Below are positions 13,053 through 14,042 of a DNA stretch of 64,000 bases, piece after piece. Each line of letters starts with the position of its first letter. The first letter of the stretch is position 1. A program made the position numbers and the translations under genes. This DNA is from Escherichia coli (GTDB lineage: Bacteria; Pseudomonadota; Gammaproteobacteria; Enterobacterales; Enterobacteriaceae). The DNA is taken from NCBI RefSeq assembly GCF_016026235.1, contig NZ_CP065613.1. One strand, 5' to 3'. The notes under the pieces were generated by a model. That model ran no database searches. It had not been told where the DNA came from and saw nothing but the letters and a program-made list of their open reading frames with translations.

Positions 13053-13129
13053 GGCCCTTTAGCTCAGTTGGTCAGAGCGAGCGACTCATAATCGCCAGGT
13101 CGCTGGTTCAAGTCCAGCAAGGGCCACCA
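13053..13129 (+). tRNA. tRNA-Ile2 (anticodon CAU; could also be read as Met)
   Basis: Hand-folded cloverleaf; anticodon loop ctCATaa; close to E. coli ileX-type from memory; ends CCA. Confidence 0.8.
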
Positions 13130-13130
13130 A

Positions 13131-13207
13131 CCACCACTAGCTCATCCGGATAGAGCATCAACCTTCTAAGTTGACGGTGCGAGGTTCGAGTCCTCGGTGG
13201 TGGGCCA
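13131..13207 (+). tRNA. tRNA-Arg (anticodon UCU)
   Basis: Acceptor ccaccac/gtggtgg, anticodon loop ctTCTaa, T-arm ggttcgagtcc, 3' GCCA. Confidence 0.75.
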
Positions 13208-13209
13208 GC

Positions 13210-13285
13210 GCCGACTTAGCTCAGCAGGCAGAGCAACTGACTTGTAATCAGTAGGTCACCAGTTCGATTCCGGTAGTCGGCACCA
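13210..13285 (+). tRNA. tRNA-Thr (anticodon UGU)
   Basis: Acceptor gccgact/agtcggc, anticodon stem actga/tcagt with loop ctTGTaa, ends ACCA. Confidence 0.7.
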
Positions 13286-13288
13286 TAT

Positions 13289-13363
13289 GCGGGCATCGTA
13301 TAATGGCTATTACCTCAGCCTTCCAAGCTGATGATGCGGGTTCGATTCCCGCTGCCCGCTCCA
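13289..13363 (+). tRNA. tRNA-Gly (anticodon UCC)
   Basis: Acceptor gcgggca/tgcccgc, anticodon loop ctTCCaa, T-arm gcgggttcgattcccgc; resembles phage-type tRNA-Gly. Confidence 0.75.
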
Positions 13364-13800
13364 GCGAGATTTGAGACGAAGGTTGTTATTTGCACTGACA
13401 CAATATTGTGTGGGAATGTCTGACTCCTTACCATCTCCTGTTCTGTGATGTTGTTTTGTTGCAGTTCCAGTGCTCTTTTTTCAGCACCAGAATGGTGCAT
13501 TGTCGGTCAGGTTACGTAGTGAACCTCTGGCAGGGGACTGATAATGCATCATTCTGGTGTTGTAAATATCTCTTCGGACAACTTACAAAATATTCTAAGC
13601 AAACCCCGGGAACACACTCTTAACTGCCTTGGCTGGCGGTTTTTTGTACAGTGCTCGGTATGTGTGAGCTGGAAATCAGATTTTGCATGGACTGGAATCA
13701 TGCTGTTATTTAGGGGCGAAGAACTGGCTTTTTCTTCCGCCTTCTCACCAGTAATGATTAGAAAAATAATGAAATGCCCCCTCCGGGGAGGAGGACCGTA

Positions 13801-13866
13801 GAAAAAAGGACCCGCCAGCAAAAACATTGGGGATGAACAGCTTTCGCTACTCAGATTGCTGGCGGG
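13801..13866 (-). terminator. Intrinsic terminator on minus strand
   Basis: 11-bp stem cccgccagcaa/ttgctggcggg; plus-strand gaaaaaagga gives UCCUUUUUUC on the minus transcript. Confidence 0.4.
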
Positions 13867-13976
13867 TAAAGTTCCTCATGAATTAAGAATGCTACGCGAT
13901 CTTTTTTAATGGAAATGAAAATTATTGTCAATTAGACGTGCGTGTTTTTTCATACAATATTGGTAAAGGTGATTCA

Positions 13977-14007
13977 GGCCATCAGAGTTTTGCTGATGGC
14001 CTTTTTT
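13977..14007 (+). terminator. Intrinsic terminator upstream of holin
   Basis: ggccatcag...ctgatggcc hairpin followed by TTTTTT. Confidence 0.5.
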
Positions 14008-14042
14008 CTTTCCGATAGCACAGGTCTGTCGGGGGGCGGGAT

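Follow-up and report, generated by a model that had tools for sequence, protein, structure and literature searches.

Organization of the Q-to-lysis region

The DNA analysed here (the window) is a stretch of 64,000 nucleotides of Escherichia coli (assembly GCF_016026235.1, contig NZ_CP065613.1), and the region under study lies within it between a Q-like late antiterminator gene and the first lysis gene of a lambda-like prophage. The Q-like gene (12309–12863, plus strand) matches phrog_753, 'anti-termination protein Q-like', with an E-value of 9e-80, and carries the DUF1133 annotation in locus L001 of E. coli FDAARGOS_943, which is 99.7–100% identical to the window across 10141–16500 as judged by BLAST. 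The first lysis gene (14043–14258, plus strand), with a dual start at Met1 and Met4, encodes a class II holin (phrog_9876 and phrog_20; annotated in the same way in L001), and is followed by lysozyme and Rz genes. The interval, occupied by four tRNA genes and a 679-base spacer, lies in an E. coli/Shigella lambdoid prophage and constitutes its Q-to-lysis 'moron' slot, i.e., the place at which such prophages carry toxins and other cargo that alters the host; here, protein cargo is absent. In the prophage Sp10 of strain Sakai, the block from Q to the tRNAs is 80% identical to window positions 12309–13271 (Q, terminator and tRNA Ile/Arg).

The reading that we favor, with moderate confidence, is that the slot holds a four-tRNA array together with a convergent pair of non-coding RNA modules, module A on the plus strand and module B with a minus-strand unit, that both RNAs are made, and that protein cargo is missing. 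The reading builds on the anatomy of the slot, on the conservation, RNA structure and position of the modules, and on a distant homology to a known small RNA (sRNA). The features are as follows.

12935–12965, plus strand: terminator 3' of Q (13-bp hairpin, U7, −18.2 kcal/mol, z −6.8)
13053–13129, plus strand: tRNA with CAU anticodon, putatively of Ile2 type (ARAGORN, printed as Met; Rfam 70.5 bits; L001 annotation)
13131–13207, plus strand: tRNA-Arg (UCU) (ARAGORN; Rfam 56.4 bits; L001 annotation)
13210–13285, plus strand: tRNA-Thr (UGU) (ARAGORN; Rfam 69.8 bits; L001 annotation)
13289–13363, plus strand: tRNA-Gly (UCC) (ARAGORN; Rfam 64.9 bits; L001 annotation)
13393–13471, plus strand: module A, 5' domain, predicted four-way junction followed by a U-run (independent folds, compensatory changes)
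13472–13562, plus strand: module A, predicted long hairpin of about 30 bp (fold energy, covariation, G·U pairs)
13563–13645, plus strand: module A, 3' part, A/U-rich single strand and intrinsic terminator (terminator scan, conservation)
13663–13800, no strand assigned: left part of module B, conserved and non-coding, including a further terminator-like hairpin of the minus strand at 13777–13794 (terminator scan)
13801–13897, minus strand: module B, candidate EcOnc32-like sRNA, about 96 nt long and directed against the late operon (fold, collinearity, conservation)
13903–13931, minus strand: putative sRNA promoter (read from the sequence)
13976–14007, plus strand: pre-holin intrinsic terminator (terminator scan; fold z −3.39)

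The spacer consists of two independent modules

The spacer is made up of two independent conserved non-coding modules that face each other, rather than of a defunct toxin gene. They abut in the window at about 13646–13662 with nothing in between, so that 'empty slot' is a fair description. The module A region (about 13380–13648) has relatives of 68–78% identity in 237 genomes and more than 120 viral contigs. Among 75 distinct contexts compared, it lies directly after a tRNA-Gly gene in 68, and module B comes next after it in only 11; in relatives, module A is followed by holins of other types or by cargo, e.g., TerB and DUF3927. Module B (13663–14042), at 85–90% identity, occurs in 1426–1427 of 5426 complete E. 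coli genomes (26%) and on 558 plasmids. Its chromosomal copies lie directly upstream of class II holin genes, and it is frequent in extraintestinal strains and on ColV/IncF plasmids. The entire spacer, at 99% identity or more, is present in 8 of the 5426 genomes, always in the same layout, and in about 30 IMG/VR prophage contigs, several of which carry insertion sequences at 13498 or 14036. A near-identity search of the phage collection with the spacer gave no match, and a distant search of the same collection gave five weak records only.

A reading of the letters without database searches (the sequence-only reading) had placed the spacer at the position where Stx-type phages carry tRNAs and then toxin genes, and relatives do have tRNAs with cargo after them in this slot: TerB and DUF3927 are found in the slot of STEC307, a methyltransferase in locus L002, and a SASA esterase in prophages of enteropathogenic (EPEC) and enterohaemorrhagic (EHEC) E. 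coli. In the LT-IIb phage, the toxin genes follow the endolysin instead of occupying the slot. Cargo at this position in relatives, and open reading frames (ORFs) of 53–92 amino acids in the spacer itself, are what would be expected if the spacer were an eroded toxin or other moron gene. None of these ORFs has a PHROGs match or is conserved in relatives, in keeping with the earlier statement that the spacer lacks a convincing ORF. Ten slot cargo proteins (LT-IIb A, LT-IIb B, StxB, TerB, DUF3927, the methyltransferase, the SASA (sialate) esterase, IraM, YnfU and NmpC) gave no tblastn match to the window, and no ORF, intact or decayed, resembles a cargo protein of the toxin or virulence morons (Stx, LT-II and others). 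The two longest ORFs straddle the junction of the independently occurring modules, the longest ORFs of module A relatives differ in strand, frame and position, and the window has a frameshift in the 63-residue 'hypothetical protein' that the L002 annotation places over module B. Decay would not be expected to leave two modules that are both intact and common, and we regard an eroded cargo gene as highly improbable. The sequence-only reading had offered a small RNA or a decayed cargo gene for the spacer; the first of these is well supported by the comparison, and on both strands, whereas the second is not supported. Nor does the spacer align to a late-promoter leader, as it might if it were a late-promoter region; the late promoter, like its terminator, is located farther upstream, at about 12860–12965.

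Insertion sequences have landed repeatedly in the cassette among relatives: an IS1 element lies between Q and the tRNAs in L001 (2831–3528), and, among L011, L066 and L071, an IS3-family element sits within the long hairpin with its junction at window position 13498, and an insertion of about 1.4 kb lies directly before the holin start, at 14036. The prophages DLP12 and Qin of strain K-12 were considered as annotated counterparts and set aside, their pre-holin regions not being homologous to that of the window.

Module A is predicted to be a structured plus-strand RNA

As judged from modeled folds and their comparison, module A is a structured RNA of the plus strand. In its 5' domain, exactly three hairpins lie within a closing stem GCACUG/CAGUGC (13393–13398 with 13458–13463), and a U-run comes after the stem. 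This four-way junction is recovered in the minimum-energy folds of 31 of 34 homologues, compared with 14 of 3400 dinucleotide shuffles (median z −4.2). Compensatory changes are found in the closing stem and the first hairpin, and the two main clades differ considerably in the sequences of the internal hairpins. The topology was checked by independent folds because RNAalifold gave a wrong pairing for the third hairpin of the domain when applied to the plain alignment. One locus returned by the pattern search, L146, is a chance match and was ignored.

The long hairpin has a fold energy of −48 kcal/mol (z −8.7) and a conserved UGGCAGGG bulge. In an alignment of 36 sequences, 92.6% of cells are paired, compared with 33–56% when the partners are slid, and nine pairs are changed on both sides, e.g., AU versus GC at 152–264 and GC versus AU or UA at 206–237; the covariation score was reached by none of 500 shuffles. 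Many positions are held as G·U on the plus strand, which argues for an RNA made from that strand rather than a DNA repeat. This bears directly on the proposal that the inverted repeat at 13472–13562 acts as DNA, i.e., as a protein-binding or recombination site, for which one might cite its near-perfect pairing over about 30 bp, the mosaic boundaries of the cassette and the insertion sequences at 13498 in relatives. At least seven positions are G·U on the plus strand in most homologues and hence A·C mismatches on the other, a distinction that is meaningless in duplex DNA, and the 13498 junction, also considered as a feature of the hairpin in several relatives, is merely the end of an insertion sequence. 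A DNA-level element is accordingly a very poor candidate.

In the 3' part, the terminator scan places a stem at 13622–13641 and a T-run at 13640–13645. The terminator and the UAAGCAAA(A/C)CC(U/C)GG motif that precedes it are conserved in terminator-type homologues, and it is possible that 13563–13645 constitutes a 3'-derived sRNA. In one branch of the module A family, an STnc100-like core (CGGGAGGCACCCG) is placed between the long hairpin and the shared terminator; the version in the window has no such core.

Module B contains a candidate antisense RNA related to EcOnc32

The left part of module B (13663–13800) is 85–87% identical in about 1500 E. coli records. To its right lies the candidate sRNA (13801–13897, minus strand), 146 nt upstream of the holin start. 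Its putative promoter has a perfect −35 box TTGACA (13931–13926), an A/T-rich spacer of 17 nt and a weak −10 box TAAAAA (13908–13903); the TTGACA is the same in every module B variant and also at the PasA, PasC and EcOnc32 loci. The terminator of the candidate consists of a 12-bp stem (13867–13856 with 13821–13810) and a U6 run at 13807–13802, and the 38-nt loop of the stem holds an inner hairpin capped by GAAA; beyond the U6 run there is a second minus-strand terminator-like hairpin (13794–13777). The minus-strand RNA from 13897 to 13796 has a predicted energy of −34.2 kcal/mol (z −4.35). Over four or five module B variants, the segments 13785–13889 and 13965–14009 are conserved at 85–100% and the holin coding sequence at 62–87%, the 16-mer 13830–13845 having been fixed by the search pattern for some of the loci in this comparison.

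EcOnc32 is an Hfq-bound sRNA of EHEC Sp3 and EPEC PP4 (PMC4104026, supplement; PMC8550237, tables). In Sakai it is represented by an Hfq crosslinking peak at 901574–901662 (minus strand), a Northern band of about 112 nt and a read count of 64.7 million (PMC4104026). The peak lies exactly between the Sakai promoter and terminator that match the window unit, at 3075–3163 (minus strand) of the Sp3 locus L178, upstream of essQ at 3308. In EPEC, where EcOnc32 is labeled as coding sequence E2348C_1013, about 2064 normalized reads compare with 5 for the neighboring holin gene; the RNA is down 2.9 log2 units without hfq, and chimeras from RNA interaction by ligation and sequencing (RIL-seq) map to 1060613–1060654 (minus strand), among them 263 with the entC 5' untranslated region (PMC8550237). 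The name EcOnc32 was not found in the texts of the papers, and no function has been published. The minus-strand 'hypothetical protein' coding sequences E2348C_1013 and ECs_0817 (L177 4301–4699; L178 2767–3165), upstream of the holin, span EcOnc32 together with the antisense of PasD1/EcOnc13, and are probably mis-annotated non-coding RNA genes.

Module B is collinear with the stretches that precede the holin in E2348/69 PP4 and Sakai Sp3: an A-run, the terminator stem, the body, the 12-mer ATTATTGTCAAT, the plus-strand terminator and the holin start are shared, and the 12-mer is identical on the plus strand of the window and the EcOnc32 loci. The local alignment score of the window unit with EcOnc32 is 32, compared with 18.6 ± 2.9 for shuffles and reached by 3 of 1000; for the pre-holin strand and the EcOnc32 locus the score is 40.5, compared with 19.9 ± 3.1 and reached by none of 1000. 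This weak but significant similarity suggests that the candidate sRNA is a diverged relative of EcOnc32.

The minus-strand unit, or module A, might alternatively encode a short peptide, as does the antisense ynfU gene (56 codons) directly upstream of essQ in K-12 Qin. The Qin region is not homologous to the window, however, there is no conserved ORF, and the sole ORF within the candidate RNA has 10 codons and no ribosome-binding site, which makes a small-protein gene highly unlikely.

On ColV/IncF plasmids, module B is found beside iss, the bor homologue (L003 4001–5014, plasmid p111; 558 plasmids). The plasmid copy retains the candidate antisense RNA and the plus-strand terminator, and its similarity to the window stops short of the holin start, at about 14011; the plasmid gene table, which is incomplete, lists neither holin nor lysozyme nor Rz at the locus. 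The plasmid locus looks like a remnant of a prophage lysis region. In the common 87% variant of module B, and in L002, an STnc100 copy lies immediately upstream of the module, a place that module A takes in the window. A plus-strand sigma-70 promoter before the holin was sought by eye and rejected, the spacings of 13 and 20 nt being unfit and the TACAAT box being absent from the 87% variant.

The tRNA array

All four tRNAs that the sequence-only reading had named between the Q-like gene and the holin are recognized by ARAGORN and by the Rfam tRNA model RF00005 (gathering score 29; E-values 1e-11 to 1e-15), at the coordinates listed above. The 3' CCA is encoded in each of them, as read from the sequence, and the genes are separated by gaps of 1–3 nt. 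ARAGORN prints Met for the tRNA with the CAT anticodon (13053–13129), the NCBI annotation of the near-identical L001 has tRNA-Ile, and a CAT-anticodon tRNA at the corresponding position in Sakai Sp10 is annotated as ileZ4; on the strength of these annotations of relatives, the assignment as Ile(CAU), which would be a lysidine-modified Ile2 species rather than Met, is reasonable. The cognate codons AUA, AGA, ACA and GGA occur at 9.4, 5.0, 12.0 and 14.9 per 1000 in the late genes, roughly twice the values typical of E. coli. Because these codons are common in phage late genes, the tRNAs most likely support late translation.

Directly 5' of the first tRNA there is a sigma-70-like site (13014–13043, plus strand; TTTGCA, 18 nt, TATTAT), from which the array could be expressed independently of Q in the lysogen. 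The site is not kept in all relatives, some of which are similar to the window from 13052 onward only. The array itself varies: L072 (E. coli CE0026f, 2172–2481), L073 and L074 have Ile-Lys-Thr-Gly, Ile-Thr-Gly, or Thr-Gly alone, and the constant core is the Thr-Gly pair with module A.

Terminators and a model for the late transcript

G+C-rich hairpins with a U-run directly after them are found on the plus strand at 12935–12965, 13622–13645 and 13976–14007, and on the minus strand at 13867–13802 and 13794–13777; the 2-kb region contains six terminator-like sites, compared with 2.0 ± 1.4 in shuffles. Both terminators named in the sequence-only reading are where it had put them (minus-strand stem 13810–13821/13856–13867; plus strand 13977–14001). 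The terminator 3' of Q is probably the equivalent of tR', ending a short transcript from the late promoter. A match to the Rfam isrK family, at 19.9 bits and below threshold, covers 12890–12963 (plus strand), from Q to its terminator, and is consistent with a short transcript from the late promoter, similar to lambda 6S RNA or StxS. The pre-holin terminator (stem 13977–13985 with 13993–14001, T-run 14002–14007) is the most conserved stretch of the region (0.95–0.98), and analogous terminators precede the class II holins of Sakai Sp3 and Sp10 and of E2348/69 PP2 and PP4.

In lambda, terminators are read through only by the Q-modified polymerase. Transcription of both RNAs, their processing, Hfq binding and targets belong to a model that we infer. 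In the lysogen, plus-strand transcription entering from the tRNA side would meet three stops ahead of the holin (about 13471, 13645 and 14007), the U-run-terminated four-way junction and the 3' intrinsic terminator of module A acting on polymerase that is not Q-modified. Since the third plus-strand terminator lies directly before the holin, the lysis genes would be reached only by the Q-modified, terminator-resistant enzyme. The minus-strand TTGACA promoter would, in the same state, drive an EcOnc32-like sRNA of about 96 nt against the late operon, as for EcOnc32 and PasA/PasC. Upon induction, the late transcript would pass all terminators, and the tRNAs would be excised and decode AUA, AGA, ACA and GGA. 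RNase III cuts double-stranded RNA, and the long duplex of module A is a plausible site at which the tRNA precursor would be parted from the lysis mRNA; the terminal single strand and terminator of module A could then be freed as a small RNA.

The same hairpins can be read as insulation only, i.e., as plain terminators, three on the plus strand before the holin and two on the minus strand, that keep the lysis genes silent in the lysogen and stop antisense read-through and that give no stable or regulatory RNA. This accords with the enrichment of terminator-like sites, with the recurrence of a plus-strand terminator directly before the holin in unrelated contexts, with the weak −10 box of the window, and with the established read-through by Q-modified polymerase in lambda. 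A terminator does not, however, need a conserved TTGACA 130 nt upstream, a conserved loop of 38 nt, a four-way junction or a covarying duplex of 30 bp, and the homologous unit of EHEC and EPEC gives an abundant Hfq-dependent RNA. Insulation is compatible with the convergent RNA pair and denies the RNA products only; as a full account of the slot we hold it to be unlikely, although it is the rival to be taken most seriously.

Several points weigh against a pair of RNAs that are actually made. Neither module has a match in Rfam (run with an E-value threshold on the region and the gathering threshold on the whole window), where the module region gave only hairpin-type chance matches to microRNA families. 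The search pattern for module A fixed 11 bases in the 5' arm of the long hairpin, so that the invariance of these columns is uninformative, and the homologue clades are few, so that the compensatory changes amount to few independent events. For module B, the covariation set contains 23 distinct sequences of three or four variants, and the stems show no informative changes. The strength of the promoter is uncertain because the −10 box TAAAAA lacks the usual final T, and the 87% variant has AAAAAT at this position. Identity between EcOnc32 and the window unit is weak, at about 50%, and homology to PasA/PasC was rejected (score 21.5 compared with about 18 ± 2.9, reached by 51–66 of 500 shuffles, p about 0.1). 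Duplex predictions of the candidate RNA with the start regions of holin, endolysin, Rz and Q gave nothing above shuffles, and no target in trans is proposed.

A bolder version of the favored reading takes module A as an undescribed class of structured phage RNA with a function of its own, coupled to tRNA-Thr/Gly, and the antisense RNA as a widespread Hfq sRNA that rewires host genes, in this case those of extraintestinal E. coli and of carriers of ColV plasmids. Candidate functions of module A would then be separation of the tRNA precursor from the lysis mRNA together with mRNA stability, or action as a tRNA-linked decoy or regulator. We put this forward tentatively, as a possibility that stands well below even chances.

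Significance

The slot is an ordinary yet under-described feature of lambda-like prophages, and in EHEC and EPEC it is already known for convergent Hfq-dependent small RNAs (PMC4104026). The window presents it in a minimal form, with tRNAs and two RNA modules but no protein cargo, and the boundaries of the modules are therefore easily seen. Should the antisense RNA prove to be expressed, roughly one in four complete E. coli genomes would carry a relative of the abundant EcOnc32, as would ColV/IncF virulence plasmids, next to iss, a gene for serum survival. Module A, for its part, would be a structured RNA family, linked to the tRNA arrays of phages, that has yet to be curated. Neither module changes the current understanding of these phages.

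Other elements of the window

Directly 3' of Rz, where lambda has bor, an antisense gene for a DedA-family membrane protein (15311–15823, minus strand) is probably a moron. Matches above the Rfam gathering threshold at 4560–4748 (minus strand) comprise a C4 antisense RNA (4560–4647, 75.7 bits) adjoining isrK (4672–4748, 57.6 bits), and their arrangement suggests a c4-antirepressor immunity module of the P1/P7 type or a Gifsy-type IsrK/anti-Q module. A sok antitoxin RNA match upstream of the nin region (10522–10697, plus strand, 117 bits), with hokD annotated at the matching place in FDAARGOS_943, points to a type I toxin–antitoxin locus of the hok/sok type. A lambda cIII thermoregulator element (56951–57009, minus strand, 88.5 bits) lies far beyond the tail genes and on the opposite strand, pointing to either a rearrangement of the window or another lambdoid element in it. 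Further Rfam matches are sRNA-Xcc1 (52311–52399, minus strand, 68.3 bits) and naRNA4, a REP-type element (48741–48811, plus strand, 60.4 bits).

Comparison with known systems

The tRNA array resembles the ileZ-argN-argO-type clusters of Stx and related lambdoid phages in its position after Q and a terminator, and in its choice of rare-codon tRNAs. It differs in that it has four genes, with Thr(UGU) and Gly(UCC) added and gaps of 1–3 nt, and in that neither toxin nor other cargo follows it.

Convergent pairs of Hfq-bound sRNAs in the moron slot have been described by Tree et al. 2014 (PMC4104026). Among these, the anti-sRNAs AgvB and AsxR (RF02702, RF02703) are, like the candidate of the window, antisense members of convergent pairs at the moron site downstream of PR'. 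Membership in these families was rejected, the models giving no match at E ≤ 1 in 12000–15000 and the RNAs having 51–60 nt compared with the predicted 96 nt or so. STnc100/PasD/EcOnc13 (RF02076) is a plus-strand RNA that occupies the same slot as module A and is likewise convergent with an antisense sRNA. Its covariance model has no match in the window at E ≤ 1; only the other branch of the module A family gives a match, at 17.5 bits and thus below the model's gathering score of 47. STnc100 lacks both the four-way junction and the long hairpin of module A.

PasA and PasC (EcOnc51/52), the Hfq-dependent sRNAs of EPEC PP2 and PP5, have been placed next to the holin operon by Pearl Mizrahi et al. 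(PMC8550237) and Zhu et al. (bioRxiv 10.64898/2026.05.13.724894). They share with the window unit a minus-strand location between cargo and a class II holin (in E2348/69, PasA lies about 215 nt upstream of the holin), a TTGACA box, a Rho-independent terminator with U-tract, a second terminator downstream and the plus-strand pre-holin terminator. They differ in following a sialate esterase gene and in being concentrated in EPEC and EHEC.

The closest counterpart is EcOnc32. Expression, Hfq dependence and RIL-seq partners are known from its Sakai and E2348/69 copies, the RNA of the window being a candidate. The plus-strand partner of EcOnc32 is EcOnc13/PasD of the STnc100 family, in place of module A, and the GAAA-capped inner hairpin and the loop sequence are specific to the family of the window. 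Both units are found directly before a class II holin, are oriented against the late operon and converge with a plus-strand RNA. The −35 context (ATTGACAATAAT), whose TTGACA precedes the 5' end by about 35 nt, is common to the two, as are a body length of about 100 nt, a terminator that combines a GCCAGC-type stem with a long loop and a U-run, and, between the sRNA and the holin, a plus-strand terminator.

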